DNA of 64,000 nucleotides from a virus: IMG/VR virus record IMGVR_UViG_3300045988_113168. The stretch is one strand, 5' to 3'. Both the position numbers and the translations under genes were made by a program. Shown here in pieces: positions 45,699 through 64,000 of the stretch; within the stretch, counting starts at the first letter, position 1, and each line of letters starts with the position of its first letter. The notes beneath the pieces were generated by a model. The model saw only the letters and a list, made by a program, of their open reading frames with translations, did not search any database and had not been told where the DNA came from.

Positions 45699-46357
45699 GT
45701 TGTACCTCCTACCGGCAAATATTCGCTCAGTCCATTACTGTACATATCATCTTCACTCTCAATAGATCCGATTTCGACAAAGTTGAAACTCAACGTACCT
45801 TTGTCATAATGCTCAGAACAACTTGTAGTAACACTGCCATTTACTCCAATTAGCCACTCACGCCCATCAAACATTTTGAGAACTTTTGCGTCTCCGTTAG
45901 TAAGCCATGCTGAGATTTCTTTACGGTAATCATTTCCACCGTCAACATCAAATTCATCTTGAGCCATATCGAATTCAATACCAACACCCGAAAAATCACC
46001 AGAATAATAGTTCGCTTCATTGCCAAAATACAGATAGGGGTATTTGCTACTCATGGTTTCGACGATAGAAGCAGTGCGTTTTAGCTCAACACTGTCTACC
46101 TTTGGCTCAAGAAGAATGTGATAAGATGTTTCTCCATCTGTAATAATTGCGCCATCAAATTCACTGACTACTATCTTTTTAACATAGCCCTTTTCAATAG
46201 TATTAACAACAGGAGACACAGCATATTCATAAGGCTGTTTGCGCCCAGCCGCATACCAGTCAGTGTGTTCCATTATGACATATCCGGTATTTTCTGAATG
46301 CAATTTTATTCCATGAATAGTATCAGAGAATGGTTTAGTGACGTTCTTTTCGGGCAT
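45695..46357 (-). CDS. Dit-like distal tail protein (possibly the C-terminal part of a TAG-readthrough fusion with 46466-47551)
   Basis: 220 aa. Only a weak AGGA upstream. In frame with the upstream ORF across two TAGs. Confidence 0.55.
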   Translation of the reverse strand: MPEKNVTKPFSDTIHGIKLHSENTGYVIMEHTDWYAAGRKQPYEYAVSPVVNTIEKGYVKKIVVSEFDGAIITDGETSYHILLEPKVDSVELKRTASIVETMSSKYPYLYFGNEANYYSGDFSGVGIEFDMAQDEFDVDGGNDYRKEISAWLTNGDAKVLKMFDGREWLIGVNGSVTTSCSEHYDKGTLSFNFVEIGSIESEDDMYSNGLSEYLPVGGTT

Positions 46358-46465
46358 GACGCTAATCCTAAAATACGCGATAATATTCTTATAATTTACA
46401 TTCCAAGATGATTTATTCTAAGTTCCAACATTTCGTGTCTTGTTAAGCATTGCAGAAATCGATTT

Positions 46466-47551
46466 CTATAGGTTTTTCATAAAAGAACTAAGAGAGGAAA
46501 AACGATCCAATGCTTCATTATAGGTATATTCTTTTCCGTCGGAATAATATTTAATGCTTGTTTCCGTATAGCCTAAGAATTTTTGGTTTTTGTCATATGC
46601 TATAATTCTAGCAATATATCCATCAGCCGATATTTCGACTGACTTTAAATCACTTGCCGGGATTAGATTAGTGCTCATTGAGATGTTATCTGTAGTAAAT
46701 ACTCCACTTTGACTAACATAGCCATTTGACCAGTTGGGCAATAAGAGCAAATCGTTTGATAAATCAACTTGTTTTTCATAAATAGTCATCCATGTGGTAT
46801 CTAAAGGCTTTTTGCGCTTAAACCGAAGATGAGTAATGTCACTCTTCACATTGGCTGGATATTTTGCAAAAAGGTTAATACAACCACGCCATTTATCGTT
46901 TCCTGCATCAAAAATTACTCCATCAATTTGTTCACTATATTTCGTCTTAAACTGTTTGAACCCAGTATCAAGCTGGTAACCTCCAATTGATTCTGCTTTA
47001 GCACGAACATAATAAACGCTATTATTGTCAAGGCCATCAACATAAAAACTCTTCATAGAGTCACGGTGATAAAAACATTGTGACTTTTTGATTTCGTTTT
47101 TATTAGAGTCATAAAGATAATATTCATATCTATTGATAACTTCACCCTCAGCCGTTTTGTAGGTATAATCACAATCAAAAGAGTATGAAGGTGTAAAGAT
47201 AATTTTAGAAGAGGAAATGTCGGAGAATGCCCTGAATTTAATGGAAGGTTTCTCGTGACAATAAAACAGAATCTTGTCACTATATTCGCTGAAAGTGTTC
47301 GTACCAGTTAATCTGCAACGAATCATGATATAATAAGGGTCATGCTGATTTACAAGGACCCCACCTTTAATTACAAATTGTCGAGCTAGGCCAGTTCCAG
47401 TGGGAGCTACTGTGCCAAATTTATAAACAGTGCTATCTTTTGACTTGAAGACGATATAGGCAACTAAGTCAATATCGGCATATGCTCCGAACTGGAATGA
47501 AGCGTCTTCGTTAGCACTAAATACATTGATTTTTGATAGAATTGGTTTCAC
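46466..47551 (-). CDS. Tail structural protein ending at TAG 46466-46468
   Basis: GTG start after GGAGGTGA. 361 aa. Confidence 0.6.
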   Translation of the reverse strand: MKPILSKINVFSANEDASFQFGAYADIDLVAYIVFKSKDSTVYKFGTVAPTGTGLARQFVIKGGVLVNQHDPYYIMIRCRLTGTNTFSEYSDKILFYCHEKPSIKFRAFSDISSSKIIFTPSYSFDCDYTYKTAEGEVINRYEYYLYDSNKNEIKKSQCFYHRDSMKSFYVDGLDNNSVYYVRAKAESIGGYQLDTGFKQFKTKYSEQIDGVIFDAGNDKWRGCINLFAKYPANVKSDITHLRFKRKKPLDTTWMTIYEKQVDLSNDLLLLPNWSNGYVSQSGVFTTDNISMSTNLIPASDLKSVEISADGYIARIIAYDKNQKFLGYTETSIKYYSDGKEYTYNEALDRFSSLSSFMKNL

Positions 47552-47566
47552 TGTATCACCTCCAAG

Positions 47567-48865: not shown

Positions 48866-48949
48866 TTTCTTTCACCTCCAAGAAAAATATAAAAGCCGAC
48901 CCGCTGGGGAAACTCAGTGGTATCGGCATTGTGTTTTTATATCCTCTAT

Positions 48950-51900
48950 TTAATTTCGCTTACTCATTTTTTGAGAAAGTTTGTTGGGAAGATTGCGGAC
49001 AATTTCGTTTGCCAAATCTTCTGCTCCACCAACAGGGTTCTGAATAACAATATCTCCAATGGAAATATCAATATTAGAACCGCCGTTAGAAGATAGTGAA
49101 GCCGTTCCGTACTTAGACATCTGATCCTGGAACCAAGCATCTGGATTGCCACCCATCTCGAAGAGACGAGAAGTAATATCTGCAGGAACGACTCCATCGC
49201 CGGTTTCAAGATAAGTATAACGTCCAGCTTGCGGTTGACGAACCAGAAGCTCAGAACCTTGCTCGTCAACATTATACTTGCCGGATTTTTGAATGCTTCG
49301 AGAACCAGAAGCTTTTTTACCAGTGATTTTTTCTTTAATTTTGTCAACAAAACTCTTTTTCTCAGAAGAACTACTGGAACTATTAGAAGATTTGCTAGAC
49401 GAAGTAGAAGAACTCTTGTCTTTATCCCGAGAACTACTAGAAGAACTACTCTTACCCGTAACTGCATTATAAGCACTCTGAACGCCGTTCTTAATACTAC
49501 TAACAATATTAGAACCAGTCTTCCATGCAGAAGAATTAGTGATTTTATCTTTGGTGGAACTTATAGCATTGTTTACCTTACTTCCTACCGTAGAGTTGTC
49601 CCATTTCTCTTTGACATTAGAAGCAATTTCTTTAGTCGTAGTTACTAATCCACTGACAGCGTTGTTTACTTTGCCGCCGAGCCAAGAATTGTTCCATGCG
49701 TTTTTTGCACTACTAACTGCGTTGCTTCCAACTTCATAGATGTCTTTACCAAGCTCTAACAAGCTCTTACCGCCAGAAACAGTCGTGGGAGTACCACTGC
49801 CGCCACCAGAAGACAAACTACTCGAAGATGTGGAACTATTGCTGGTAGTATTTTTGGTAGTAGGAGTTGTCTGACCTTTATCGTACAGATCGTTTCCAAT
49901 CGTACCAAAACTATCACGAATAGAAGAAATAGTGTTATCGCAACTCTTAGTGATGCTATCATAAGCTTTCCCCATGACCCACGTAATATTTTCACTAAGA
50001 TCGATAGCACCGGGCTCAACATTCTTCCAGGCATTTGCCATTTGGTCAGGGAGAACTTTATTCAAAGTCTCTTCACTCTTGGATTCGATTGTACTATATG
50101 CGCCATTGATTGTGCTTTGAGTATTATCGGCCAAGTCACGGACACCGCTTTCGGCCATGCCCCAGCTGCTATCGAAACAAGCTCGCATATCATAGAGCAT
50201 CTTTTCGGTATCACCGGTGGTATCAGCCCAAGCTTTAGAAATAGTAGACTCCGTTTTAGCACTCAGGTTGCGGATACCACCACCACACTGATTCCAACTA
50301 TTCTTCATCTTACTAGAGATGGAATCCATTGCATTAGAACAGCTATCTTTCATAGAATTGAAAGAGTTCGCCATTTTATTAGCGTTAGACTCACTCATCT
50401 CGTCAGTCATAGATGCCATTTTGTTAAAACCAGCAGTATATGTGTTTTGCATTGACTGGAACAGTTTTTTCGTGATACCCTCGACCTGTTCTGCGTTCAG
50501 TGCGGTATTGTCTCCGATAGCGGCATAGGTATCTTTAACCAGCTTCTGCATATTGCTATACATTTCTTTACTGGTTGCATCAATCTGATCGTCGCTCAAA
50601 CCAACCTCTTTTGCCATATCCTTCCATGTCTTCTCAAACTGAGATTTCATAGAATCAAGCTGGGCAAGTGTGTTGGATTTGGAAGAAGAAATGAGATTGT
50701 CAAGAGGATTACCTGTACTACTATTACCAAAGCCAAAGAATTTACTAATTGAATCCTTTATTAAGCTTCCGCTATTTATTAAGCCTCCGCCGTTTATTAC
50801 GCTTCCGATATTCTTTATCTTATCAAACCATTTCGAAATCGAAGAGTTTTGACCAGAAGAGTTTATAGTGGACTTGGTTTTATCTGCGAATGTAGTAAAC
50901 TTTAAATTCAACCCGCCTAGAGTCTTAACGCTCTTTGAAAGCAGCGTAGGAATAAGGCCGGTCTTATTATCATCACGAATATCGTCAACGGCCTCAACTA
51001 CTTCATCAACTTTAGAGTCAATGGCAGTGTTTTTGCGAGCTTGAGGCGCAGAAGTAATAGTCGTATATCCGCTGGAAGCAGCAGAGTTGCGAGAGCTAGG
51101 TATTTTAGAGGCTACGTTCTTGACCCAGCCGATAGGATTCTTGGCGATTCCCATTAAAGTCGCGGTTTGTTTTGCGGGGATAACTCCGTCACCTTTTTCG
51201 AGTTGAGTCAGGCGTCCCTTCTCGGGGGAGCGAACGATTATCTCTTCGCCTTCCTCATCGACATTATAAGTACCAGCCTTTTCGACTTTCTTAGTACCTT
51301 TAGCAAATCCAAACAGTTTACCAACCCAGCGAATTGGAGCAGTCACAATGTGTCCGATTGTACCAAGTAAGCCGCGTTTCTTTGTACCATCGCTAGATGT
51401 GCCACCAAACAAGAATTTTCCAATGCCACTAACGGCTTTAGTGATCGTTTTGCCAATACTCTTAACTATTTTACCAAGAGTTTTGCCAATACCAGTTACA
51501 GCTTTCCCGATAGTGGAACCGATTTTTGCGAGACCGTTTGTAAATGAGCCGCCACCGATTGCACTGACAGCAAGCGTGCCGCCAAGGAGAATCGTACCGA
51601 TGACAGGAATATGACTGACTGCAGCCGCAATAGTTCCAGCGACACCAGTACCACCTGCAGTACCTACAGCGGCAGTTACCGTTCGACCAATTCCTTTGAA
51701 AATACCAGCAATACCAGAAAACAGCTTGGTTCCACCCAATGTAGTACCGATGCCACCGAAAATTGAGCCAAGCCCACCAACCGCTTTTTGGGCAATAGAT
51801 GCGACTCCACTGAATCCCTTCTGGAAGATTGACATTAGACCGCCACTGCCAGAGAAAATTCCCTGTGCTGCAGAGACTACAGTCGTTTTTACATTGCCAA

Positions 51901-54900
51901 GAGATTTTACAATAGCCTGTCCTAGTTTAGAAATCTAACTAGTGCTCTCTCCAAGGAACCCTTTTGCTGCAGCGTACTTATTAGAGCCTCCAACGCCAAG
52001 GAAGCTCTTTCCTGCGTCCAAGAGGCGTCCCCAGAATCCTTTACCAGAACTCTTATCAGAGAACGTACCAACCGCACGCTGCAGACGATTCTACAGACCC
52101 GTAATTCCACCGTTCTGAGTAGAACCATTCAGATTGCCAAGCACGTCTCCGAGCTTAGTCAGTGTATCAATCAGTGTCTCAAGCTTGGTGATAACATTAG
52201 AAACATTAGTTGCTCGCTGGACCGCCTTCATATTGGAGACAACAGAGGCCATAAATCCATCGTAGTGACCTTCCATCTCTGCAAAAGTCATAGCCTCGAA
52301 CTGAGACGTATATTTCAGTTTCTTCTGATAGTCGTCCCAGCTTGTGCCAATAAGGTTAGTGGCTTCCTGAACCTTATCTTTGAGCTTGTTCAGCCGGTCG
52401 ATTTCTTCCTGTTTCTTATACTCACGGCGTTTGCTGTTGAGGTCACTCTGAGCGTCACGAACTGTACTTGCATCAGCCTCCCACTCGTAACCATTCTCGC
52501 CATAGACGCGAGTGGTCTTATTGGCCTGTGCTTTCGCGAGAGCATCCTCGGCTTTTTGCAGTTCAATCGCACGCTCTTGAGCATCATTCTGCTCATTCAG
52601 CGCGTCGATACGTTTGTCGATAACATCAATCCATGCATCACCCTGAATCTTCAGGTCGTTGGACTTTTTATCATTGAGCTTATTGAAAATATCAAGCAGT
52701 GAAGAGAAAAGGTCTTTAAGGTTAGAGATGACAGACTGTAACTTTTGAGCCTCAGTACCCATCCCCTTCATATGGTCGGTAACATCCCAAGTACCATTTG
52801 CTACCTTTTCAAGAATTTCGGCGTAACGATCTCCGAGGTCAGTACCCTTATATGTTTCTGCAAGGACTTTTAGCTGCTCAATGTAAAGGTCTCTAAAGGC
52901 TTCCTTGTTAAAGACGAGTTTCCCGCCTTCTTCTTTAAGGCAAGCCGCATACTTTGGATTAAGAGACATATACTTCTGGATGGTATCTTGACTTAATTCT
53001 CCATAAGCGTTATACTCATCTACAATATCAAACAAATCGTTGAATGCACTCTGGTAGTCATCCATTGAATTATTGATTTTGCTAAGAGTACTTCCGATTC
53101 CGTTAATATAATCCTCAATGCTGAGTGCATTGCTTGCAATCTTATTCTTTGCATCTTCAAAGCCCTTGGCAAGATATGTTCCAGCGGCTCCGCCAGTCTC
53201 CTTACAAGCTGCAATCATCTTGTCGAGACTATCAAGGAACATATCCTTAAAAGCGTCGCTGTTGTAATCAATATCTCCAGTCTCGGGATTCAATGCCCCA
53301 GCGTACTTGTCATTCGTAAACAAGTCTGTGTTATCATATAGGTCACGAATTGCCTGATACTTTTTCTCAACATCGTCAGAATCTAGCAGTCCAAACGGAT
53401 TGTCAATCTTGTTTTTGCTAACATCGGACAGCCCAGAGAATGCGGATTTTATAGCGTCTGTCTTTTCTTTGGCATCTGCCATCGCGGTGCCGTAGCCCTT
53501 GATGGCATCAGTTAACTGCTCAAAAGAAATGGTTTCGGAATCGACACTAGAGTTCAACCAGTCAAGAATCTTCTTCATCTCGCCAGCAGACTTGCCACCA
53601 TCATTAGCTGCATTCGCTTCCTCAAGCTGCGCTCTGACAAAAGTGCGGAATTTTGCGGTATTAAGTTCAAGTTTTCCATTTTGCTCAGTTAAGCAAGCAG
53701 TAAACTTATCATCAACACCGATTAACGACTTCATGGTGTCTGCACTAATATAGCCATATTGGTTATATTCTTTCATCGCTTTTGTTAAGGTATCAAATGC
53801 GGATGCAATATCAGATACAGACTTCGCGGTAGATTTATTGTTCTTGTTGGTCTTATTTGTCGGGAACCCATTAAGCTGATTTGTTAGTTTTTGTCCACCC
53901 CTTAGAGCAGCGTTCATATTGGTGTACAACAGAGAAAGCTGAGTATTTGTGCGATTCGTGATTTCCTCTAGCTTTGCAGGATCTACACCGCGTTCACCTG
54001 CTTTTTCGACTTCGTTCGCAAACTCTTGAGCCGCGCTATATGTAGCGGTTGCCGCAGTAGCATTTTTCAAAGCGGGGAGAAGATTCTCAAGAGCAGTCTT
54101 TTCGGCCTTGGTTTTCTCTTTTAGGTTATCAGTGCTTTCAGCTGTGTCATCGGCAGTAAGGTTTGCAACCTCATGTTGTGCATTAGAAAGAATTGTGGCG
54201 GCAGCTTCTGCATATTCAGCGGCAAGTAATTCGGCATAGCTCTGTTTATTTATCTGGAGCTTACCATTAACAAGCTCAAGGCAATTCAAATACTCGGTGT
54301 TCATCGACAGTAAAGACTGAAGAGAATCGAGACTCATGTAGCCATACTGATTGTACTCTTCCATTGCACTGGTAGAAGCTTTATACGCAGACTGGATTTC
54401 ATCCATTTTGGAAGAAATATCTTCCATCTTCTGTGCGCCAGCAGCCAATGCGTCAACACCATTTGCAGAAGACTGAGCTACAATACCAACTTGAACAAGT
54501 GCTTGGATAAACGCATTTACACCGTTTGTGTCAGCAGAGAAGTCCATGTCGGCCAAAGCTTTACGAAGATTTGCGAGAGCTTGCGCTTGATCATCGGACA
54601 ATCCTTCGTTTGTACCCCACAAGAGTTCATTCAGCTTACTTGCATCAAATCCATCAATCGTATCTTTCAGAGTTTGAACAGCAGAATTTACCTTATCGAA
54701 AGTAAAACTGACATCCATACTGTTATTATTGTCATTCTGCCAAAAATCAACTGCTTGAAGTTTTCTACGAGCATTCGTGTTATTGTTGATGGCATCCGTT
54801 GAGTCATTGTAAGAATTTACATCATTACGGAGAGCAGATTGTTCATCAAGCAAGAACTGATACAGACTATGATACGTTCCACCGGCAGCTCGCTCGGCTT

Positions 54901-55789
54901 CGGTAGTATTATCAATAACATACTTTAAGGCTTTGCCAACTTCGTTGTAATAGTCAACAATAGAATCCGCATCATTTAACTTGTCAGGTCCGTAACCACC
55001 AAACTTATTAAAGACATCAATACCAGCATTTTTAATCTGGTCACCCATATCCATTTCAGGAGCCGACCAAACAGTAAGATAATGCGTCCGATTATTCTTC
55101 TTGGCTGTATCAACAAGCTTGTCGCTTTGAGCATCTTTGTTTTGTGTCAACTCATAACGAGATGCCTCCAACTGCTCCGCTGTAATATCCTGAAGTAAAC
55201 CAAGCTGCTCTTCATATTTACCATTTTGCAGGTCAATCTTACCAAGTTTGTTTTCATCAAGCGTTCCTTGTTCTTTCGCAAGATCAAGAATCTCTGTCTG
55301 AATATCTTTTGCTTGGTCAAAGTCCTCAGTATCCCAACCAGACTTGTCGCCAAGTTCTTCATACGCACTGACTAAGTCCTTTAAGGAGAAAGTTGTATCC
55401 TGTGCTGCGTCCGCCGCTTCCTTAGACTTCGTTGCGACATTTTGCACTCGTTGTGCCGCTTCCGTAATCTTCTTAGTGCCCCAAGAGATGAGCAGGCCAA
55501 TTCCAACACCCAACGCGGCATTGAGCAATAAAGCTCTTGCGCGAAGGGCAAGTAGTTTAAGGGAAAAACCTTCAGTTGCGTCGCCTGCGGCCTCTGTGTT
55601 AGCTTTACTTTGCTTCAACGATGTGATAAAATCAGAAATAGAAGGCTTAGTTCCATCAAGAGAACGCTGATAGGAGAGAATTGCATTTCTGAGTTGAAGA
55701 ATTTTCGCTTTTACGTCGTTCCAAAACTCATTTTTTACACCATCTTCGTCAGCAGTAAACAAGAAAGATAATATCGAAATTTTAATCAT
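48950..55789 (-). CDS. Tape-measure-like protein, C-terminal portion; 2279 codons including two in-frame TAGs (52091-52093, 51935-51937)
   Basis: Track ORFs 52091-55789 and 48950-51835 share one frame (3954 nt apart). The 85 bridging codons have no TAA/TGA and are Gly-rich like the flanks. Long coiled coils, Gly-zipper hydrophobic blocks, and two G.YNVDE.G.E..V motifs. No SD before ATG 55789. Confidence 0.7.
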
Positions 55790-55802
55790 TGAGGAGAGAA
55801 GA

Positions 55803-56210
55803 ATGAATAAAATTCTATACTGCCCGTGGTGTGAAAAATATGTTAAGGGTGTTTGGTATTCATGCCCATTTTGTAGCGCACAAACTATCTATATAAAAGC
55901 ATGGGATAAAAAATCTGACGAAGAAAAGAAAGAATGGTTAAAGAAATTTCCAAAAGTTGACCCACCAAGACCAATCAAAGACAAATCACTACTTCGTGAG
56001 GCGGAAAAATTCGACAAACAAGCTCGTGCTGAACTTGCTCAAGAGGAAGCTCGCCTTGCTCAATACAAACCAACTTGCCCAGTATGCCATTGTCCTGATT
56101 TGGAGAAAATCTCCGGCTTTGACAAGACTGTGGATATAGCGGTCTGGGGCGTATGGTCGAGAAAGGCGCATAAGCAGTTTAAGTGCAAAGCGTGCGGATA
56201 TGAATTTTAA
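55803..56210 (+). CDS. Double zinc-ribbon protein, copy A
   Basis: RBS GAGGAG. CPWC...CPFC and CPVCHCPDLEKIS...CKACGYEF. Confidence 0.65.
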   Translation: MNKILYCPWCEKYVKGVWYSCPFCSAQTIYIKAWDKKSDEEKKEWLKKFPKVDPPRPIKDKSLLREAEKFDKQARAELAQEEARLAQYKPTCPVCHCPDLEKISGFDKTVDIAVWGVWSRKAHKQFKCKACGYEF

Positions 56211-56222
56211 AGGAGAATAAAA

Positions 56223-56663
56223 ATGCTTCAAAGAACAACAAACGGTGTTCCTCAAAAAGATTTTTGTCTTCATTCTCCTGCAAGTGTAGAATTCAACGGA
56301 AAGGAAGTTCGTGGACTTACAGCTTATTGGGATACTGGAAGCTCCGTATGCTGCATTGCAAGAGAAATTGCCAACAAACTTGGCTTACCCATCATGCCAA
56401 CCCAACAAGAAGTTAAGTCAATCACAAACTCTAAAATGGCTGACATTACTGTCTGCACATTAAAAATTGGATATGGCGATGACATAATCCTTCCTGATAC
56501 ATTGTTTTGCGTTATGGACCCGGAAGATTTTGAATATGAACTTCTTATCGGACAAGATATTATAGGATATGGAGAACTACATACCAAATACAATCCAGCA
56601 ATGGAACGGATTAGACTTGAGTTTGAGATTGACCCTTCTGTAATTCCAGACCCTGAGATTTAA
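56223..56663 (+). CDS. Retropepsin-like (clan AA) aspartic protease, copy A
   Basis: RBS AAAGGAG. Active-site WDTGSS and LLIGQDII motifs. Confidence 0.65.
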   Translation: MLQRTTNGVPQKDFCLHSPASVEFNGKEVRGLTAYWDTGSSVCCIAREIANKLGLPIMPTQQEVKSITNSKMADITVCTLKIGYGDDIILPDTLFCVMDPEDFEYELLIGQDIIGYGELHTKYNPAMERIRLEFEIDPSVIPDPEI

Positions 56664-56760
56664 GTATAGCCTTCCATTGTGAAAAAATTCGTTTCCGTTC
56701 TTCCTGAGTAAACGGAGGCATCTTCCGTACTCTTACGGAAACAATGTTAAAATCGTTCAT
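56611..56760 (-). CDS. Possible small ORF (49 aa)
   Basis: GGAGGT 6 nt before the ATG. Overlaps the 3' end of protease A by 53 nt. May be spurious. Confidence 0.25.
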   Translation of the reverse strand: MNDFNIVSVRVRKMPPFTQEERKRIFSQWKAILKSQGLELQKGQSQTQV

Positions 56761-56786
56761 TCAAATACCTCCGATACAAAAGAGAG

Positions 56787-57209
56787 ATGAAATCTATGGA
56801 AAAATATGTACGGTATTGCCCATTTTGCGACAAATATTACCATAAAAGAGATTTGTTGTGCGCGTTTTGTTTGAGAGATACTATTCTATTGCCTCAATGG
56901 AACGGAATGAGCGAGCAGAAAAAAATCAATTGGAGGTTTACAAACAGACCCAAAAGAGATATTTCAGAATTAGACCCGAATTTTGTTAAAGAGATGCAAG
57001 ATAAAGCCAATGCCTTTGACGCTCAATATAGAGCCGATTTAGAGGAAAAGGAACATCCGAAGTATGTGCCCGCCTGCCCTGTGTGTGGATCGCCAGACTT
57101 ACGCAAGATCAGTACAACCTCAAAGGTTTTGGATGTTGCTTTCTGGGGATTTGCCGCTGGCAAGCCAAAGAAAACATATCATTGCAACAATTGTGACTAT
57201 GAATTTTGA
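56787..57209 (+). CDS. Double zinc-ribbon protein, copy B
   Basis: CPFC...CAFC and CPVCGSPDLRKIS...CNNCDYEF. Paralogue of 55803-56210. Confidence 0.65.
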   Translation: MKSMEKYVRYCPFCDKYYHKRDLLCAFCLRDTILLPQWNGMSEQKKINWRFTNRPKRDISELDPNFVKEMQDKANAFDAQYRADLEEKEHPKYVPACPVCGSPDLRKISTTSKVLDVAFWGFAAGKPKKTYHCNNCDYEF

Positions 57210-57221
57210 ACATAAATAAAG

Positions 57222-57250
57222 CCCCTATCTGGCACATCACCAGATAGGGG
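57222..57250. terminator. Bidirectional terminator
   Basis: CCCCTATCTGG / CCAGATAGGGG 11-bp stem between convergent genes. Confidence 0.65.
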
Positions 57251-57264
57251 ATAATGTGAGCTAT

Positions 57265-57759
57265 TTAGTTTTCGTTCATCTCTTTTGCAACGGCCACAGC
57301 ATCTTGGAATGTATACTCATGAGCAGTAAACTTCGTTTCGCTTAGAGAAGGAAGTCTGTATGTAAATGTGGTCTTGCCATCAAAGTTGCTAACAGCGAAA
57401 TCGCCAGCGGAGATGATGTCCATACCAATCAACAGACCAATCTTTTGATACTGGATCGCCATCTCACAGACGGTGACATTGCTGAGACGGATACCATCAC
57501 AAATAATAATATCCATATTGTAAATATTCGCTCCTTCAACTTCGTTTGAAGCCGAAATAACATTAGTAGTGCCGATAGGTTGGAGTTTTAATTCTTTCGC
57601 AAGGGTAGGAGAGATACAAGTGCATGTTGCACCAGTATCCCAAACAGCCTTCGCTATAGTCATATTCTTGCCGTTCTTTACGACTACTGGCGAGATTAGC
57701 TTACGCTCGATTTCAGCTGATGTAACTACGATTGCGGAAAGATTCTCCATTTTAATCAC
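57265..57759 (-). CDS. Retropepsin-like (clan AA) aspartic protease, copy B
   Basis: WDTGAT and LLIGMDII motifs. ATGA overlap with the upstream gene. Confidence 0.65.
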   Translation of the reverse strand: MIKMENLSAIVVTSAEIERKLISPVVVKNGKNMTIAKAVWDTGATCTCISPTLAKELKLQPIGTTNVISASNEVEGANIYNMDIIICDGIRLSNVTVCEMAIQYQKIGLLIGMDIISAGDFAVSNFDGKTTFTYRLPSLSETKFTAHEYTFQDAVAVAKEMNEN

Positions 57760-57959
57760 CCTACAATTTTCTTGTCTTTATTTTCAGAGAACCACTTGGC
57801 TTCTCTGGCGGCATAATAGGAATTAAGAAATTTTAAATGCTTTTTTGATACAGACAGAAGTGACCTCATGGTGTCTACAGTAATATAACCATGTGCAAAA
57901 AATTCATCAACGGCATTTCTACCAACCTGACGGTCTTTTCTTCTTTTGGAAACGTACAT
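57756..57959 (-). CDS. Hypothetical basic protein (67 aa)
   Basis: ATG 57959 after GAGGTG. Confidence 0.5.
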   Translation of the reverse strand: MYVSKRRKDRQVGRNAVDEFFAHGYITVDTMRSLLSVSKKHLKFLNSYYAAREAKWFSENKDKKIVG

Positions 57960-58014
57960 ATATTTCACCTCGAATGTTATCATGAATTGTATGAGTTGTC
58001 AAGCCGAAAAACCG

Positions 58015-58287
58015 TTACGCTTTCCAGTTTGCATTTTCAACGCACGGCTGAATGTTCACAGAACATCCGTGTTCATCGCAGGTTGTCATAATTTGATTTA
58101 CAATGACATCATCAGACTGCTTAGAGTGATAAGGCTTTTGATACCGAACAAATACTTCATCCATTTTATTTTGAAGATTTTCCATAACGGACTTTGCTAG
58201 GTCATCGGAATTACCAATGGGTTTTCGCTGCTCTCTAATCACATTGATGAGGGTGGCGAGTTCTTTTACGTCAATTTCAATTTTCAA
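58015..58287 (-). CDS. Hypothetical protein (90 aa)
   Basis: TTG 58287 lies 6 nt after GAGGTG. The track ORF extends to TTG 58314. Confidence 0.45.
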   Translation of the reverse strand: MKIEIDVKELATLINVIREQRKPIGNSDDLAKSVMENLQNKMDEVFVRYQKPYHSKQSDDVIVNQIMTTCDEHGCSVNIQPCVENANWKA

Positions 58288-58307
58288 TTTAATCACCTCG
58301 ATTATAA

Positions 58308-58400
58308 AATACAAAGCTTATCGATGTAGCTATTTGGGGCCGGGCAAGCAGAAAGCCCGGCAAACAGTTCAAGTGCAAGAACTGTGGGTACGAATGGTAA
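58308..58400 (+). pseudogene. Truncated third copy of the zinc-ribbon gene (C-terminal 30 codons only)
   Basis: NTKLIDVAIWGRASRKPGKQFKCKNCGYEW* aligns with ...VDIAVWGVWSRKAHKQFKCKACGYEF* of copy A. The downstream CATAAATAAA-CCCCT hairpin is also shared with copy B. Confidence 0.65.
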
Positions 58401-58431
58401 GCTATAACTAACTCAACAGGCATAAATAAAA

Positions 58432-58462
58432 CCCCTGTCGGATGGCATCCGTCCAACAGGGG
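58432..58462. terminator. Bidirectional terminator
   Basis: CCCCTGT / ACAGGGG stem. Confidence 0.55.
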
Positions 58463-58480
58463 AGTTGTATGTTATTTAAC

Positions 58481-59104
58481 TTAGTGTTTTGGCATCTCAA
58501 CTAATCCGCCAATATTGAACTTTTGATACGGGGAATTGTTATCCATGTACATGAGTTCAAATCGCTCAACTTCACTCATCTTGATACAAAGGACAGTCCC
58601 ATCTACACGATGCTCTTTAAGTGCAGTTGGGATATCATCGGCACTATTTGCCGTACAATGATGAATCACCACAATGTAATCATCGTCAGCACTTGAAAGT
58701 TTTCCGTAGATTACCTTCCCATCTTTTGTGAAAACTAGAATCTTTGTGCCACGTTTCGTATCAAAGAATTTAGTCCAAATATTGTCGGCAGTTTCAACAC
58801 TTAGAAAATGGGCAAAGAATTTTCTTGCCGGAAAACTATTCTTTATTAAATAAAATAAGATACCGCAAATAAAACCAATGGCAACATAAAGTAGGGCTGA
58901 CGGAACTACTGTAATTAAACATTGTGGCGCGTAACCATCCACAAAATTCTTGAAAAGATATCCAAGCGAAATACTAATAATAACGTATGCCGCATACTCG
59001 ATTTTTTTCATCGAAAGACGAGTATAAACCCAGACGCAAATTGCTCCTGGAACAAAATAAGAAAATAGTGAGTTAAAGTCACTTATCAGTTCCGTTATTT
59101 TCAC
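58481..59104 (-). CDS. Membrane protein (3-4 TM) with C-terminal Sm/SH3-like beta domain
   Basis: Hydrophobic N-terminal half. C-terminal ILVFTKDGKVIYGKLSSADDDYIVV. Confidence 0.6.
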   Translation of the reverse strand: MKITELISDFNSLFSYFVPGAICVWVYTRLSMKKIEYAAYVIISISLGYLFKNFVDGYAPQCLITVVPSALLYVAIGFICGILFYLIKNSFPARKFFAHFLSVETADNIWTKFFDTKRGTKILVFTKDGKVIYGKLSSADDDYIVVIHHCTANSADDIPTALKEHRVDGTVLCIKMSEVERFELMYMDNNSPYQKFNIGGLVEMPKH

Positions 59105-59261
59105 TTTGACCTCCTTCTTTTGGTTTTACGGTTCGGAGACTTTGGAAAAATTCTACATCCGAATCGACATTGAAATCCTTACCTTTACCATCAACATACG
59201 AGAATTGCATATCGCGACTCGAAATTTCATAATCCGGCACATGCTTCTTATTGTTTTCCAT
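59079..59261 (-). CDS. Hypothetical protein (60 aa)
   Basis: RBS AAAGGAG. First gene of the minus-strand operon. Confidence 0.5.
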   Translation of the reverse strand: MENNKKHVPDYEISSRDMQFSYVDGKGKDFNVDSDVEFFQSLRTVKPKEGGQSENNGTDK

Positions 59262-59284
59262 GATTTAACACTCCTTTTACAAGA

Positions 59285-59313
59285 GTGTATCACGGTTCAG
59301 AGATAGTGTCAAC
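59285..59313 (-). promoter_or_regulatory. Promoter for 59261->58481
   Basis: On the minus strand: TTGACA, 17-nt spacer, TGaTACACT. Confidence 0.5.
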
Positions 59314-59356
59314 TAAACTTTGCTACACAGGGTTCCACAATAATCCAAAACAGAGA

Positions 59357-59386
59357 TTGACAAGATATTACGATATATCCTATAAT
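59357..59386 (+). promoter_or_regulatory. Promoter for 59444-59644
   Basis: TTGACA, 18-nt spacer, TATAAT. Confidence 0.5.
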
Positions 59387-59443
59387 AGATGAGCAATCAC
59401 TATGTACTATGCTAAAATTCCAACTGAAAGGAGGTCGCCAGTT

Positions 59444-59644
59444 ATGACGCATAAAGAATTTAATGAAATCTTAGAGACTGAAACGAACAACGGTATTGAT
59501 CTTTTAATGCAAAAAATGCGAGGACTCGAGGAAAAATCTCAAACTGAGCAGATAGCCAATATGATTTGTTTAAGTATGGGCGCTACAATTAAAATTATAA
59601 TAGCCATACTTAAACAGTGCGGCGTTATCAAATTCGAAGACTAA
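59444..59644 (+). CDS. Hypothetical protein (66 aa)
   Basis: ATG after AAAGGAGG. Confidence 0.55.
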   Translation: MTHKEFNEILETETNNGIDLLMQKMRGLEEKSQTEQIANMICLSMGATIKIIIAILKQCGVIKFED

Positions 59645-59651
59645 ATAGCAA

Positions 59652-59692
59652 AAGCCCGGCCTCCCAGTAGTAGGGAAGTCGGGCTTCGTTTT
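59652..59692. terminator. Bidirectional terminator
   Basis: AAGCCCG / CGGGCTT stem followed by TCGTTTT. Confidence 0.55.
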
Positions 59693-59703
59693 ATGATGAT
59701 ACC

Positions 59704-60036
59704 TTACTTCAAAAGTTCAGCGATATCTTCAGCAGTCATGCCATTGGCCAGTGCGTTGGCAACAATGACTTCTGCCTTTTTGCGATTCAACTCTGCCGCA
59801 ATCTTTTCATCGGCATCAGCCTTTTTCTTTTCGAGTTTTGCAATCTCTTTATTGAGTTTTTTCAGCTCTGCTTTTTTTGCTTTTCTTTCAGTATTCAGTG
59901 CGGCAATATTCGAGCCGAGAGATGCGATTTCTTTAGCAATGGATTCTGCTGCGGCATTTTTCTCAGCGATCTGTGCTGCGTAATCAACGCCGTTAAGAAC
60001 CTTTGTTTTGTTCTTGCTTCCTTTGGGTCTAGCCAT
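59704..60036 (-). CDS. AT-hook-like / coiled-coil DNA-binding protein
   Basis: RBS GGAGGT. N-terminal RPKGSKNK, then a Lys/Ala/Glu coiled coil. Confidence 0.6.
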   Translation of the reverse strand: MARPKGSKNKTKVLNGVDYAAQIAEKNAAAESIAKEIASLGSNIAALNTERKAKKAELKKLNKEIAKLEKKKADADEKIAAELNRKKAEVIVANALANGMTAEDIAELLK

Positions 60037-60145
60037 AATAAAATACCTCCGTATATTTTGGATACGCGATTGTACTTTTATTATAGCCAGAAAATCTCAT
60101 GAAAGCAACCTCTTTTTATGTATTATAAATTACATTATAGTGATA

Positions 60146-60175
60146 TTGACAGGATATGACAGGCGGGTGTATAAT
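60146..60175 (+). promoter_or_regulatory. Promoter of the toxin-like mRNA
   Basis: TTGACA, 18-nt spacer, TATAAT. Confidence 0.5.
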
Positions 60176-60319
60176 AATGGGGCAACCAAGAGTTCACGTT
60201 GAACTTGCCAATCATAGACGTAAAGAATAGGCGGTCACCCTCCCAGTAGCCGGAAGGCGAAAAGGAGCGTGTATTTCTCTAACTGCCTTTCGGCAATCTT
60301 GTCGGAAGGAGGATGTGTA

Positions 60320-60433
60320 ATGGATTTTGGATTCATTTACAACTCACTGATACAAACTGTTGGCGTTATCGCCGCAGTCATCGGTGCTGTTTACACTGTC
60401 CGTTGCTATAACGATAGTCATGGCAATAAGTAA
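60320..60433 (+). CDS. 37-aa hydrophobic peptide, type I toxin-like
   Basis: AAGGAGG 7 nt before the ATG. MDFGFIYNSLIQTVGVIAAVIGAVYTVRCYNDSHGNK has one TM segment plus a polar tail. Confidence 0.5.
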   Translation: MDFGFIYNSLIQTVGVIAAVIGAVYTVRCYNDSHGNK

Positions 60434-60546
60434 AAGAGCCGCCTATAGCCACTAGGCAGCTCTTCATGATTGGGATTAAGATTGTCCAAGTCTTGATTCC
60501 ATGTTTGATTATCTACCGAGGGTTCCGTCTATTGAACTCTTGGTTG
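60433..60546 (-). ncRNA. Candidate ~110-nt antisense RNA (antitoxin-like)
   Basis: Runs from the minus-strand promoter at 60552-60580 to the terminator at 60435-60463. Would be complementary to the 3' UTR of the plus-strand transcript. Confidence 0.4.
60435..60463 (-). terminator. Terminator of the antisense RNA
   Basis: AGAGC-GCCTA / TAGGC-GCTCT stem, followed on the minus strand by TTTTACTTATT. Confidence 0.5.
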
Positions 60547-60551
60547 CTTTT

Positions 60552-60580
60552 ATTATACACATTTTGAAGTACACTGTCAA
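60552..60580 (-). promoter_or_regulatory. Consensus promoter on the minus strand
   Basis: On the minus strand: TTGACA, 17-nt spacer, TATAAT. Embedded in the plus-strand terminator. Confidence 0.55.
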
Positions 60581-60600
60581 CGAACAACAGTGTACTTTTT
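60567..60600 (+). terminator. Rho-independent terminator of the toxin-like mRNA
   Basis: AAGTACACTGT / ACAGTGTACTT stem followed by TTTTT. Confidence 0.6.
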
Positions 60601-61057
60601 CAATTTTGTTCAAAATTGTTCAAAGTTCATTGAATTTTTAGTTCTCTTACTTATTCCACGCCAGAGAACAGCGTGTCTCCTCATTCCACCTACTTCTTTA
60701 AGTCGTCTGGTTACGTCTGAGGTGGACTTCTGAACTTTCGTCCAGAACTGACTATCCTTCCAGTGGTTGCTCACTGACCCTTTTTAGTCGATGAACCTTC
60801 CGCTTTCCTACATTATATAATAGGGAAGTGGATCGGCTGCTGACCGCCCATTGTAAACGCTACTTAGCACTCAATTATTACCATATTTTTACAATACGAT
60901 AAAACCGAGCTTTTATCTCAGCATATAGCATCCATATCCTTGTTTCTATCTTTCGATTCCTACCTTATATAAATATAATAATAGGCGATATGGCTCTTAG
61001 GGTTTCCCAGCACTCTAGGGGCTATTTTATTTTTACATGGTGCCGCATCCTATGTTA

Positions 61058-63493
61058 TCAAACGCAACAAACATAAGAGGGCATATTAACTTTACCCGCA
61101 CCATTCTTGAGCTTTCCGCTTATCTGCATTACGGACAACACGCCAGAGATGGTAGCTGTAATGGCCGGAATAGAACCTGCAAGGTTGACCATTCCGTCTG
61201 CTGCATCAACAATCTTTGTTGCAAGAGTAACAAAGAATTTGATGAGGTCACTGCTCATAACGTCGTTTGAGAATTTCTCAAAGCTGGCGTTAAGCTGCTT
61301 TAAGCGACCCTCAATTGAATCCATCATGCGCTCTTGTTCAGTCATTGCTGAATTAGAGCTGTTAGCGGCATCTTCCATTGATTTTTCAGCAATGGAGAAT
61401 TGCTCGATCACGGAAAGTACCGCATTCGAGTTCCTTTTGCCGCCAAGCATCTCTGTGACGTTAGCTTTACTAACATCAGTAAGTTTATCCCATACGGCAG
61501 AAATCTCTTTCAGGATCTGATATGTACTCTTAAATTCTGTACCGGCGGCATCCTTCATAATGTCTACGCCAGTTAAAGATTTCAATTCACTTCGCAGTTC
61601 AGAAACAGAACTTGCCATATCATCAACTGAAACGCCAAATGCCTCTGCGTCAGTCTTACTGGCTCGCAGATACATTGAAATTGTTTTTAAAGTTGTGCCT
61701 ACGGTATCCGGGTCCTGAAGTACAGAGTTGGCCGCACTAATCAACGAAACGGACTCTTCAAACGAGTTCCCGGCTGCCGATAATGCGCTTGCCGATCTGA
61801 CGAGTGCCTCCGCAATACCACTTTCGGAAATGGGTTCGTTGTTGCCCACTGAGTTAAGAACATTGACGACGTGTTCTACTTCGTCAGCTTCCATTCTAAA
61901 TCCCTTTAGAATAGAGACTAGATAAGAAGCTGCGTCAGATGCACTATCAATTCCATCACCAATGTTACTTAGGACAGTGGACCACTTTGCAAGCTTTTGT
62001 GATTCGTCCAGTGTATAGCCTAGACGAGACCATTCTGCTGTACTGTCAATAACATCAGAGATAGAAGCACCAAGCTCACGCGCTTGACTTGAAGCAGACG
62101 ACAAAAAGCTTGAGTATGCCGATTCAGTCTCATTCGTGACTTTTTTCAAGTTAGTCATAGATGTATCTATATCTACGACGTTATTATAAACTTCTCGTAG
62201 ACCCTGTTTAACCATAGCCACGCCAGCCATAGCGATAGCAGTCTGGAAGTGCTCCTTAAACAGACGAGACAGTTTTTGACCAAGAGTTTCTGTAGTGGCC
62301 CCACATCTGCTGGCCTCAACCTCAAGGTTTGATAGTCTTGCACTAAGATCAGTAACATCGCCTTCACAGCCAGCAGCAGAAGCTTTTATTCCGTTTAAAC
62401 TATCAATTAGCCAAGAATATTTACTTTTATTTGCAATAGAGTCTTCTAACTTCGTTGCACGTTCATAAACACTCTTAAACTTCGTCATGTCAACATTGGC
62501 TTGATTCAAATCTCTAAAATCAAATCCAAGTTCTTTTAAATGTTGACTTGTAGAATCAATAGTTGTATCAAGAATCTTGCATTTTTTATCAAAGTCTTGA
62601 ATTGCTTTCCCTGGTGTAGTGTTCTCAATAGAAGCAAGCTGATCTCGCAATTCTTTTAACTTTCCAGATGTTTTTCCAGTGCCATCTTCTCCATATAAAT
62701 ATTTTTTGATATTATCATTTTTATAGTTGGAGTTATTCTTGGAATAGTTTTCAAGAGACTGAATCTTTTTTTGATACTTTTCATACTCGGATTCTTGAGA
62801 TGTGAGAGCCTTTTTTAAATCATCTGCAATTTCTTGATTTTGTTTTTTTAGTTCTTTTGCAACCGAATCAGCACCTTTTGCAGTATTTCTGTCAGCATTG
62901 AATTTTCCGGTTTTTTCGATATCCTCAAGCTTTAACTTCTGAGATTCCGTAATTACTTCTTTTGTTTTAGTCTTGAGTTTATCCATCTCATCGTTGATTG
63001 CGCTCAATCTAGTCTGTACCGCTTTCAACTCAGATGATTTGTTTCCATTAGCAATTAACGATGCTTCATCCGCTTTTAGCTTTGCTTGACGATTTGCAAG
63101 GCTGAAAAGGCGAGAAATATCACTTTTTGAAGTATCCTGTGTTTTTGTGGAACCAGACTTTCCGGTATCAACCTTAACTGTCTGCTTTGCCGCAGATTGC
63201 ATAGCTTTTTTAAGCTGTGCGGTTACTTTGCTCTGGTCGATCTTAACATCAAGTGTGACCTTTGGAGTTTTTAGTTTTCCACTCTTGACTACCTTATCAA
63301 GCGCATCATTTATATTACGGATAGTGTCGTTTTGATTTACTCCAAAAGCAATTTTTACTGGTTTTTCTTTATAATGCTCCTTAACAGAATTAAATTGCTG
63401 GTCTAATTCTTTTTTATTTGTGTCAATAACAACCTTGACCTTAATGGCTGTTACGGCAGAAGACTCTGTGCCAGTATTTTCTTTTTCATCCAT
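61058..63493 (-). CDS. Tape-measure protein, N-terminal portion (TP901-type core region)
   Basis: ATG 63493 after GAGAGGTGA. N-terminal coiled coil. The core ...AGVAMVKQGLREVYNNVVDIDTSMTNLKKVT...GASISDVIDSTAEWSRLGY...ISESGIAEALVRSASAL... resembles the TMP core family as I recall it. Ends TGA TAA. Confidence 0.75.
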   Translation of the reverse strand: MDEKENTGTESSAVTAIKVKVVIDTNKKELDQQFNSVKEHYKEKPVKIAFGVNQNDTIRNINDALDKVVKSGKLKTPKVTLDVKIDQSKVTAQLKKAMQSAAKQTVKVDTGKSGSTKTQDTSKSDISRLFSLANRQAKLKADEASLIANGNKSSELKAVQTRLSAINDEMDKLKTKTKEVITESQKLKLEDIEKTGKFNADRNTAKGADSVAKELKKQNQEIADDLKKALTSQESEYEKYQKKIQSLENYSKNNSNYKNDNIKKYLYGEDGTGKTSGKLKELRDQLASIENTTPGKAIQDFDKKCKILDTTIDSTSQHLKELGFDFRDLNQANVDMTKFKSVYERATKLEDSIANKSKYSWLIDSLNGIKASAAGCEGDVTDLSARLSNLEVEASRCGATTETLGQKLSRLFKEHFQTAIAMAGVAMVKQGLREVYNNVVDIDTSMTNLKKVTNETESAYSSFLSSASSQARELGASISDVIDSTAEWSRLGYTLDESQKLAKWSTVLSNIGDGIDSASDAASYLVSILKGFRMEADEVEHVVNVLNSVGNNEPISESGIAEALVRSASALSAAGNSFEESVSLISAANSVLQDPDTVGTTLKTISMYLRASKTDAEAFGVSVDDMASSVSELRSELKSLTGVDIMKDAAGTEFKSTYQILKEISAVWDKLTDVSKANVTEMLGGKRNSNAVLSVIEQFSIAEKSMEDAANSSNSAMTEQERMMDSIEGRLKQLNASFEKFSNDVMSSDLIKFFVTLATKIVDAADGMVNLAGSIPAITATISGVLSVMQISGKLKNGAGKVNMPSYVCCV

Positions 63494-63610
63494 ACTGTTG
63501 GTCACCTCTCTTTTCCATTTTCAACAATTCCTTTCAAAATAAAAAAGAGAAGCGGCCAGCTTCTTCAAGCCAGCCTCCTCTCATTCAAATTTTCCAAATA
63601 AATTGTGTGA

Positions 63611-64000
63611 TTACAATTCACGTAATGCGGTTCTTACGAGCATAGCTGCTTCAACTTGGACTTTTGAAATAAATGGACGCGCAGGACGCTTTGGTTTATT
63701 TTCCTTCGGTCGCCCCATTCGATTCCACTCTGCAATATCCATCCATAAGCCATGCTCAATCCAATTAGCAAACATTGTTCCTTCTAAGGCTGCATTATCT
63801 CCTTCTCGGAATGGCGTTTTGCACCATGATGCTTGCGGTCTTGCAATATTCTTTACCGTCATGGTTACAACATTATCGTCAGTAGTAACGCTACTTACGA
63901 TATTTTTTTTGCCTTCGATTCCGTCAGATCGTCCACTCTTCGAGTGTACGTTTTCTACAATGCTCGCTTGTAGTCTCGTTTCAATTTCCGGCGCAACACC
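63611..64000 (-). CDS. Hypothetical protein upstream of the TMP (possible tail assembly chaperone); 5' end outside window
   Basis: The frame is open from nt 64000 down to TAA 63611-63613. The position suggests a G/T-like chaperone, but no motif was recognised. Confidence 0.45.
   Translation of the reverse strand, partial: GVAPEIETRLQASIVENVHSKSGRSDGIEGKKNIVSSVTTDDNVVTMTVKNIARPQASWCKTPFREGDNAALEGTMFANWIEHGLWMDIAEWNRMGRPKENKPKRPARPFISKVQVEAAMLVRTALREL

Follow-up and report, generated by a model that had tools for sequence, protein, structure and literature searches.

The window analysed here is the whole 64,000-nucleotide (nt) stretch of the virus record IMGVR_UViG_3300045988_113168, in which the tape-measure gene, carried on the minus strand, is found in parts separated by an island of small genes. 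A preliminary description of this DNA had reported the gene to be split, and the minus-strand open reading frames (ORFs) 61058-63505 and 52091-55789 are both present. The tape-measure core assigned to ORF 61058-63493 was confirmed by a PF10145 PhageMin_Tail domain (residues 473-689, E 3.3e-25) and a match to the tape-measure profile PHROG 4211, of whose 2625 positions part 1 covers just 565-947. Part 2 gave no family match in profile scans, and part 3, further downstream, matches the tape-measure family PHROG 167. The ORFs and the elements that we propose for them are listed below, with protein lengths in amino acids (aa).

61058-63505, minus strand: part 1 ORF, 815 aa from GTG 63505 or 811 aa from ATG 63493
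61076-63505, minus strand: proposed tape-measure exon 1, 810 codons from GTG 63505 or 806 from ATG 63493, ending ...AAU AUG CCC UCU (NMPS)
55775-61075, minus strand: proposed group I intron of 5301 nt, made up of ribozyme core, cargo genes and a short 3′ tail with terminal G
61058-61075, minus strand: intron read-through, the first 18 intron nt encoding YVCCV, then TGA and TAA
60640-61075, minus strand: predicted ribozyme core of about 436 nt, with P1, P3-P9 including a P3/P7 pseudoknot, and the peripheral hairpins P9.1 and P9.2
55775-55802, minus strand: intron 3′ tail, ...UUCUCUCCUCAAUGAUUAAAAUUUCG, with its terminal G at 55775 and a UCUCCUC that is the antisense of the Shine-Dalgarno sequence (SD) of a Zn-ribbon gene
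52091-55789, minus strand: part 2 ORF, 1232 aa
52094-55774, minus strand: first 1227 codons of proposed exon 2, starting AUA UUA UCU UUC (ILSF...)
51935-52093, minus strand: frame between two amber codons, the first replaced by F or W and the second by E in relatives
48950-51934, minus strand: continuation of the tape-measure frame, with the PHROG 167 match and a C-terminus that aligns with contiguous tape measures
48950-51835, minus strand: part 3 ORF, 961 aa from ATG 51835

The interval between parts 1 and 2 had been delimited by 61057 and 55790. The split itself stands, and its functional boundaries are instead placed at 61076/61075 and 55775/55774, where a slash, here and below, marks a splice junction. 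Nor is the split special to this genome, as every relative recovered is broken at the same nucleotide.

A permissive Rfam scan of 51000-64000 returned a single family, RF00028, at 60729-61069 on the minus strand (24.6 bits, E 0.008); the match spans the full-length model and begins within the last codons of part 1. The same intron scored 28.1 bits in the relative L036 and 39.2 bits (E 1.7e-6) in L063, a member of a second lineage (lineage B) in which part 1 is about 38% identical to that of the window and the match also sits exactly at the part 1 stop. We mapped the group I topology by hand on 29 distinct cores of the window's family, with controls in which the 3′ partners were slid by 1-3 columns. 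Of 2927 pair cells 98.9% were paired, as against 34-44% in the slid controls, a contrast that is partly built in because the structure was derived from these same sequences. In these cores 28 pairs vary on one side and stay paired, and 4 change on both sides. Between the lineages, compensatory changes were read by hand from the two Rfam alignments in P3, P5, P7, P8 and P9. Covariation and the paired-cell counts thus support the predicted group I fold. RNAalifold run on the family alignment did not recover this topology, which includes a pseudoknot, and a MAFFT alignment of both lineages had the 3′ half of the core misaligned. Three relatives (L001, L035 and L039, ~11363-11765) carry an extra insert of about 400 nt in the core, between window positions 60833 and 60798; no ORF in it is convincing, and it may be either an expansion of a peripheral helix or an element nested in the core.

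The 5′ splice site was located from P1. In the window CU/UAUGUU pairs with AACAUAGG, and the sole U.G of the helix is invariant; the form CU/UAUG...CAUAGG with a single U.G is common to both lineages. Intron position +4 covaries with its guide partner in the family (AU in 24 cases, GC in 2, GU in 2 and another combination in 1). P1 with its U.G therefore puts the predicted 5′ splice site after ...AUG CCC UCU (NMPS), at 61076/61075, and in lineage B after ...AUG CCA ACU (MPT). The register of P1 given by Rfam itself (splicing after GCGUUU) was rejected, since it leaves the helix broken in most relatives, lacks a clean U.G and is out of frame. With the intron starting at 61075, six codons ahead of the part 1 stop, the YVCCV, TGA and TAA that end part 1 are intron sequence (variants in relatives read YICCV and a stop), so that unspliced RNA and gene callers alike would yield the 811/815-aa 'part 1'. 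A resemblance had been suspected between this end (..YVCCV) and the start of part 2 (MIKIS..). It is meaningless, because both stretches lie inside the proposed intron.

At the other end, the terminal G at 55775 lies 14 nt inside the part 2 ORF and the exon begins at 55774. In 43 of 43 family loci this G precedes [AG]U[AG]UU[AU][AU]CUU at the start of exon 2. The bases ahead of the conserved G differ among the loci (UCG, UAG, AUG, CAG, UUG or CCG), and in the alignment of all 43 codon-like third-position variation sets in directly after it. An in-frame UAG abuts the acceptor in L005, L013, L025, L038 and L040, with the first ATG, GTG or TTG 26-77 codons downstream. The first start codon is codon 88 of exon 2 in L035 and L039, and it is also far inside exon 2 in L016, L020, L024 and L028 (overall range 26-88 codons). 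All 22 lineage B loci have the acceptor AG/GUCUUUAAAACA, i.e. AG/GUC UUU AAA ACA, often right after a stop codon and with no start codon within 20-46 codons of it. Both junctions are in phase 0 in both lineages, and joining 61076 to 55774 in frame gives ...GKVNMPS/ILSFLFTADEDG... (...NMPS/ILSFLF...). The exon 2 starts AUAUU, AUGUU and GUAUU are all able to pair with the guide AAUAU at a one-base offset, which would make a possible P10 of 5 bp, with one mismatch in the window itself. Judged by these features, the downstream break has the marks of a putative splice acceptor rather than of a gene start. As previously described, part 2 has no SD, and the ATG of the divergent gene is 13 nt away. 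The conserved UCUCCUC upstream is the reverse complement of the SD of that gene. With a group I core at the start of the island and a conserved acceptor at its end, the island is most likely one giant intron and not the lesion of a dead prophage. A 'decoy' copy of the acceptor, UCUCCUCAAAUUAG/AUAUUAUCUUUCUU, open for 14 codons, was found in L007-L011, L022 and L027 (~15556-15616) and in L033 (14694), upstream of a second Zn-ribbon gene inside the cargo; it appears from this copy that the intron tail and ~14 nt from the start of exon 2 are carried along when the Zn-ribbon gene duplicates.

These features of the acceptor bear on another explanation, in which parts 1, 2 and perhaps 3 are separate polypeptides that assemble non-covalently and the island is an ordinary intergenic accessory hot spot. 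The group I element would then be a small local intron or relic with its 3′ site at ~60640, or would merely truncate part 1. If part 2 were a gene of its own, it would be one without an SD, preceded by the anti-SD-like UCUCCUC and with a start that is not conserved; in many relatives a stop abuts the coding sequence, and use of the first start codon would cost 20-88 conserved residues. The invariant G and the in-phase junctions of two lineages would also be left unexplained. In addition, a length ruler needs one continuous chain spanning the tail, as with gpH of phage lambda.

The preliminary description had proposed that part 2 be compared with contiguous tape-measure proteins, and we ran this comparison. 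Residues 1-400 of exon 2, used as the query of an exhaustive search without profiles, returned proteins of 1586-2433 aa in which the matched region lies 600-1000 residues from the N-terminus. When the concatenated product of the window, with its junction at residues 810/811, was compared with contiguous tape-measure proteins by BLASTP, five of them aligned in a single high-scoring segment pair across the junction.

P0260: query residues 401-1034, E 2e-104
P0238: query residues 391-1106, E 1.5e-79
P0276: query residues 401-1010, E 5.5e-68
P0226: query residues 416-1142, E 2e-56
P0245: query residues 412-1229, E 1.6e-29

As these alignments cross the junction, one gene is favoured. The spacing between the two hydrophobic segments on either side of the junction is 108 residues in P0238 and ~110 in the predicted ligated product. 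P0239, P0226 and P0276 also align at their C-termini with the C-terminus of part 3. The features of a tape measure are thus distributed over the three parts, with the PhageMin_Tail core in part 1, the second hydrophobic segment and coiled coils in part 2 and the C-terminal motif in part 3, and they make one polypeptide only if both splicing and amber read-through occur. Ligation would restore an uninterrupted gene; the homologue alignment shows the product of ligation, not its occurrence. An earlier alignment of the junction with three contiguous tape measures from IMG/VR (L041, L058 and L071) was uninformative because the region is poorly conserved, and the better homologues later resolved the question.

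Taking the two splice sites and the homologues together, we consider it probable that parts 1 and 2 are joined at the RNA level, in cis, by this group I ribozyme. Among the explanations offered before, an excisable intervening element came closest, except that excision would most likely take place in the RNA by a group I ribozyme, which had not been recognised. The ribozyme would cut after U61076, the U of the U.G pair in P1, during late transcription and ligate this end to A55774. The ligated junction is predicted to read AAUAUGCCCUCU/AUAUUAUCUUUC, and in lineage B AUGCCAACU/GUCUUUAAAACA; the peptide spanning the junction of the spliced product would be ...GKVNMPSILSFLFTADEDGVK. Splicing would restore a tape measure of at least 2037 aa, or of ~3084 aa if both downstream amber codons were read through, for which the open frame of the relatives speaks, and unspliced RNA would encode part 1 only, owing to the stop five codons into the intron. 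The cargo genes would be expressed independently, in the manner of morons, from a site that is removed from the RNA. Since there are intrinsic terminators inside the intron, splicing in cis needs them to be read through by late transcription; we infer both splicing itself and this read-through by the pre-mRNA, that is, cis and not trans.

A number of results weigh against cis-splicing of such an intron. All RF00028 scores obtained for it lie below the gathering score of 50 bits, no P10 was seen in lineage B, and the window has an AUG (55789) 5 codons ahead of the proposed acceptor. The pairing of the 3′ tail with the core and post-P9 region, as computed with RNAduplex, was no better than in shuffled sequences (z from +0.1 to -1.9). 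The long-range pairings tried were that of UGAGGAGA with UCUCCUCA in the window's family and a 15-bp duplex in one lineage B variant. No sequence with a ligated exon junction was found. An intron-less allele carrying the predicted ligated junction was absent from IMG/VR for either lineage, and in the JGI metagenomes a search for it gave 4 matches, all by chance and to an unrelated membrane-protein gene. A 172-aa junction peptide compared with 5.8 billion proteins as a probe for the fused protein gave matches that were all one-sided. No homing endonuclease (LAGLIDADG, GIY-YIG, HNH, PD-(D/E)xK or similar) was detected among ten cargo proteins with Pfam, PHROGs, NCBIfam and PADLOC. Finally, the intron holds terminators on the tape-measure strand (60465-60433 and 57250-57222) as well as convergent strong promoters, and terminators before the divergent gene are also found in the minimal introns of both lineages. 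A docking of GAGGAGA with UCUCCUC was also considered and is unsupported, its energy being like that of shuffles and the motif being confounded with the SD of the divergent gene.

The failure to find either a fused protein or an intron-less allele, and the terminators and convergent promoters between the pieces, would fit a gene translated in separate pieces, as would AUG 55789 in the window and an AUG at or beside the acceptor in some relatives. Stops also come soon after any acceptor placed beside the core, and a precedent exists in the NrdA of Aeromonas phage Aeh1, whose gene is split by mobE and still functional as two chains. The two-piece tape measure, which had been suggested before, therefore remains the main rival; in view of the acceptor and the ruler function we regard it as doubtful and do not favour it.

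The same terminators raise the alternative of splicing in trans, whereby one RNA (exon 1, core and same-strand cargo) would stop at an internal terminator, a second (3′ tail and exon 2) would begin within the antisense of the Zn-ribbon gene, and the ribozyme would join the two. This would agree with the presence in both lineages of a tape-measure-strand terminator ~450-1450 nt before the acceptor, with weak promoter-like sites on that strand at 56587-56559 and 56231-56204, and with the location of the whole catalytic core on the 5′ piece, so that the terminal G and pairing with the guide would suffice for the 3′ piece. Against it, we saw neither a conserved promoter from which the second RNA could start nor significant complementarity that would bring the two RNAs together, and to our knowledge trans-splicing group I introns are known only from organelles. 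We thus hold trans-splicing to be improbable. A broader version is that the intron is a protected site for exchangeable cassettes, with exons 2-6 kb apart that are either trans-spliced or spliced under a switch provided by late antitermination. With such a switch, lysogeny and early infection would give the truncated part 1 and cargo only, and the full ruler would be made once read-through reaches the remote acceptor. This version we consider unlikely.

Whether cis-splicing would yield the full ruler depends on the amber codons downstream. One reading frame runs through part 2, the 255 nt that follow it and part 3, with no interruption other than TAG 52093-52091 and TAG 51937-51935, and the full ruler amounts to 810 + 1227 + 1 + 85 + 961 = 3084 residues. 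L008-L014 and L022 read straight through both sites. The first TAG is common to five other contigs (L025, L029, L030, L032 and L037); among loci that reach the second site its TAG is confined to the window, yet 961-aa variants of part 3 occur on more than 20 contigs. Four comparisons were usable for the ratio of nonsynonymous to synonymous polymorphism (pN/pS) downstream of the first TAG; three gave ~0.2 and that with L025 gave 0.66, all from small counts. A suppressor tRNA was looked for in the window and in 13 loci, which cover only part of each genome, and none was present. The amber codons may be suppressed, bypassed by re-initiation or a sign of decay of this sub-lineage. Genome-wide recoding of TAG is not supported, as few real genes here end in TAG and only one other TAG-bridged pair exists (45695-47566). 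In this pair, a 366-aa gene (46466-47566, minus strand) ends in TAG and is followed by 16 codons, a second TAG and then a 240-codon ORF in the same frame (45695-46417); it may be another amber-interrupted late gene or a chance arrangement. Within part 3 the C-terminal motif G.YNVDE.G.E..V..P..GR...LE.GDGV.PA occurs twice, at residues ~177-244 and ~841-908, and tblastn matches in relatives cross-match both copies.

We then looked at how widely the arrangement is shared. All 65 related contigs that carry both ends have it, 43 in the window's family and 22 in lineage B, with intron lengths of 2241-6149 nt and 2290-4876 nt, respectively. The 811-aa form of part 1 was found among the best 120 of 1390 matches, with one variant on 472 contigs. 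The exact proteins of the window are encoded by 5-9 contigs, the longest of 137.8 kb, which were deposited under 'MAG TPA: Caudoviricetes sp.', where MAG stands for metagenome-assembled genome; the complete 137.8-kb contig is where DAN17110.1, DAN17188.1 and DAN17190.1 come from. The same junctions are present on viral contigs of complete size (125-137 kb). A megablast search of 48900-63600 against GenBank phages gave two short unrelated matches only.

This distribution is difficult to reconcile with a recent insertion of a moron or defence island, or of an element excisable as DNA, that inactivated the tape measure of a decaying prophage. Such a crippled prophage had been put forward before. 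It is contradicted by the same break nucleotide in 43 family and 22 second-lineage contigs, some of them complete-size, by the occurrence of part 1 on hundreds of metagenome contigs, and by an intron core that is more conserved than the flanking exon and visibly under structural constraint. No recombinase was found among the island proteins in Pfam, PADLOC and NCBIfam scans, and the low pN/pS past the first amber codon points the same way, within the limits of its small counts and the higher value of L025. Decay would account for the two in-frame amber codons in the window, for cargo that resembles lysogeny-expressed morons and for a 14-kb fragment of a related phage lying between high-GC flanks in a Faecalibacterium MAG. 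On balance a decaying prophage is very improbable. The Faecalibacterium contig (L076, 4000-18000) has a 14-kb stretch of 36-47% GC between flanks of 54-60% GC, which contains the intron, the adjoining 3′ end of exon 1 and an exon 2 that is truncated. The stretch is either a chimeric assembly or the remnant of a prophage, and offers the only indication of a host for the window's family. The island had also been thought to be richer in AT than its surroundings, which the computed values do not bear out: its GC content is 39.4% against 40.0% in part 1 (0.394 and 0.400), with 0.428 in part 2 and 0.414 in the whole window, and just the adhesin-like gene is clearly higher (0.462).

On comparing identities along the gene in 60-nt windows, we found four loci (L024, L028, L029 and L033) in which the last 1.1 kb of exon 1 is just 40-70% identical to the window; identity in the same loci is 90-95% in the final 60 nt of exon 1 and 88-100% through the core. 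This step where exon meets intron is what a mobile or homogenised intron that leaves short co-conversion tracts would be expected to produce, and suggests that the proposed intron may be of this kind. Sister group I introns were found in the same gene of relatives at codons ~603 and ~690, at the following positions.

L036: 10768-12595
L038: 8687-10001
L062/L063: 10765-12556 and 10792-11233
L072: ~10492-10796
L081: 12170-13771

Some of these are ORF-less (~300-470 nt) and others carry endonuclease-like ORFs of 300-460 aa with Zn-finger repeats and a C-terminal FDFYLP..IEY(D/Q)GxQH motif, with CapR/DUF723 matches in L036. The tape-measure gene of L081, a MAG, has four Rfam group I matches, one at 71 bits. 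The lineage B intron in a prophage of the cultured Hominimerdicola aceti strain Sanger_31 (L080, 12533-14300) contains an IS607-type element, which brings it to 4876 nt; the element consists of a MerR-resolvase TnpA and a TnpB with OrfB_IS605 and Cas12f1-like TNB domains. In a Lachnospiraceae genome (L075, 11104-13363), a related part 1 ends abruptly (...LDHQRCLKFLYF and a stop); after it comes a TIR-domain protein of 417 aa (TIR_2, E 1.3e-12), with no group I match and no continuation of the tape measure within 10 kb.

The interval had been described as carrying about 11 genes on both strands with promoters and terminators of their own. This is borne out by 11 plausible small ORFs, three perfect 12/12 sigma-70 promoters and 12 terminator-like sites, as against 4.9 expected. 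The cargo is arranged as follows.

60110-60633, both strands: optional toxin-antitoxin (TA)-like module, with a 37-aa hydrophobic ORF 60320-60433 (plus) and a 12/12 promoter 60146-60175 (plus)
60580-60552 and 60465-60433, minus strand: convergent 12/12 promoter and terminator on the other strand of the TA-like module
59704-60036, minus strand: coiled-coil protein of 110 aa with a basic N-terminus, backbone cargo of all family members with its own promoter
59402-59644, plus strand: 80-aa ORF behind a 12/12 promoter 59357-59386, variable cargo with no Pfam match
59079-59261 and 58481-59104, minus strand: 60-aa ORF and 207-aa membrane protein, weak DUF6338 match, backbone
57265-58314, minus strand: block of three genes for proteins of 99, 75 and 164 aa, the last a retropepsin-like aspartyl protease
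57222-57250, both strands: strong bidirectional intrinsic terminator with a 13-bp stem, ~1.45 kb before the 3′ splice site on the tape-measure strand
55803-57209, plus strand: Zn-ribbon gene 55803-56210, aspartyl protease 56223-56663 and Zn-ribbon paralogue 56787-57209

The backbone of the family consists of the 110-aa coiled-coil protein, a small ORF, the DUF6338-like membrane protein and the divergent Zn-ribbon gene, which adjoins the 3′ splice site in every family member. The minimal intron of L028 (2.2 kb) is this backbone alone, and other loci add optional modules, namely the type-I-TA-like pair and the aspartyl-protease genes; lineage B has the same layout of cargo with unrelated genes. 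The module 60110-60633 is absent as a unit from 13 relatives, in which 60634 joins 60109 directly. It looks like a type I TA pair, a function that is predicted only, and no Rfam family matched within it. For the aspartyl protease at 57265-57759, PADLOC gave a match to the candidate defence protein PDC-M08B (E 1.8e-8), and the 110-aa protein gave just coiled-coil noise in PADLOC and NCBIfam. The Zn-ribbon protein family is confined to this phage group, and its AlphaFold2 model (pLDDT 77) retrieved only generic zinc ribbons (E >= 1.9) and no nuclease-like match from the PDB with Foldseek. At 58330-58400 (plus strand) there is a C-terminal remnant of a third Zn-ribbon gene, ending ...KCKNCGYEW and a stop and followed by a terminator at ~58420-58470. 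The earlier idea of morons is retained for the cargo genes, with their own promoters and terminators, and not for an insertion that crippled the tape-measure gene.

The closest known arrangement is the group I intron of T4 nrdD (sunY), which is said to have been described by Shub et al. in 1988 and, with a 'remote 3′ splice junction', by Michel et al. in 1992. Both have the core at the 5′ end and a coding insert with its own promoter downstream, hence a remote 3′ splice site. The T4 insert is one same-strand endonuclease ORF of ~0.8 kb, whereas the insert here is 1.8-5.7 kb long, with 4-11 genes on the two strands and terminators among them; no endonuclease is recognisable in it, and its contents vary even among close relatives. 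It has been described that ORFs in T4 introns have promoters of their own (PMC2988022). Spliced introns are frequent in tape-measure genes, and in the Vibrio phage ICP1 splicing was shown by RNA-seq and reverse transcription PCR (PMC10448857). The tape-measure gene is interrupted there as well, and one ICP1 isolate has two intronic genes, but the ICP1 intron is small and carries HNH homing endonuclease cargo only, as opposed to the accessory or defence-type-looking cargo with nothing endonuclease-like found here (PMC10448857). The capsid intron of mycobacteriophage LittleE holds a gene on the opposite strand (PMC3706429). In that case too a late structural gene is affected, U ends exon 1, G ends the intron and an opposite-strand gene lies inside; it differs in that this is a single endonuclease gene, an intron-less relative is available and splicing was verified. 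Aeh1 NrdA is comparable in that mobile DNA inserted into an essential phage gene has physically divided it. Aeh1 has no ribozyme, and each half there has its own translation signals, the two associating as proteins; here, in contrast, a predicted ribozyme lies exactly at the break and part 2 has no conserved translation signals. The moron and defence hot spots of temperate phages and satellites are sites of fixed position where small genes with their own promoters and terminators are rapidly exchanged. The contents of the island are similar and include a TA-like module and a candidate defence protein, but the known hot spots are intergenic, whereas this one lies inside the coding sequence of an essential gene and is bounded by putative splice sites.

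We would describe the element as a probable group I intron of a tape-measure gene, one whose 3′ splice site is remote and which serves as a hypervariable multi-gene cassette. If true, its 5.3 kb (up to 6.1 kb in relatives) would make it, as far as we know, by far the largest phage or bacterial group I intron described, and the first to hold a hypervariable both-strand multi-gene cassette in place of a homing endonuclease gene; if trans-spliced, it would be the first such case outside organelles known to us. For annotation it would mean that one tape-measure gene of ~3000 codons is called as three unrelated 'hypothetical' or 'minor tail' proteins, and that the tail length predicted from the gene would be wrong in a phage family present on hundreds of human-gut contigs. 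It would also provide a concrete system for studying how a remote 3′ splice site is reached by a ribozyme when terminators and convergent promoters lie in between, and a lineage B prophage is present in the cultured isolate Hominimerdicola aceti Sanger_31. It would further imply that the coding sequence of an essential late gene can be a safe harbour for moron and defence-type genes, because the ribozyme would erase these cargo genes from the mRNA.

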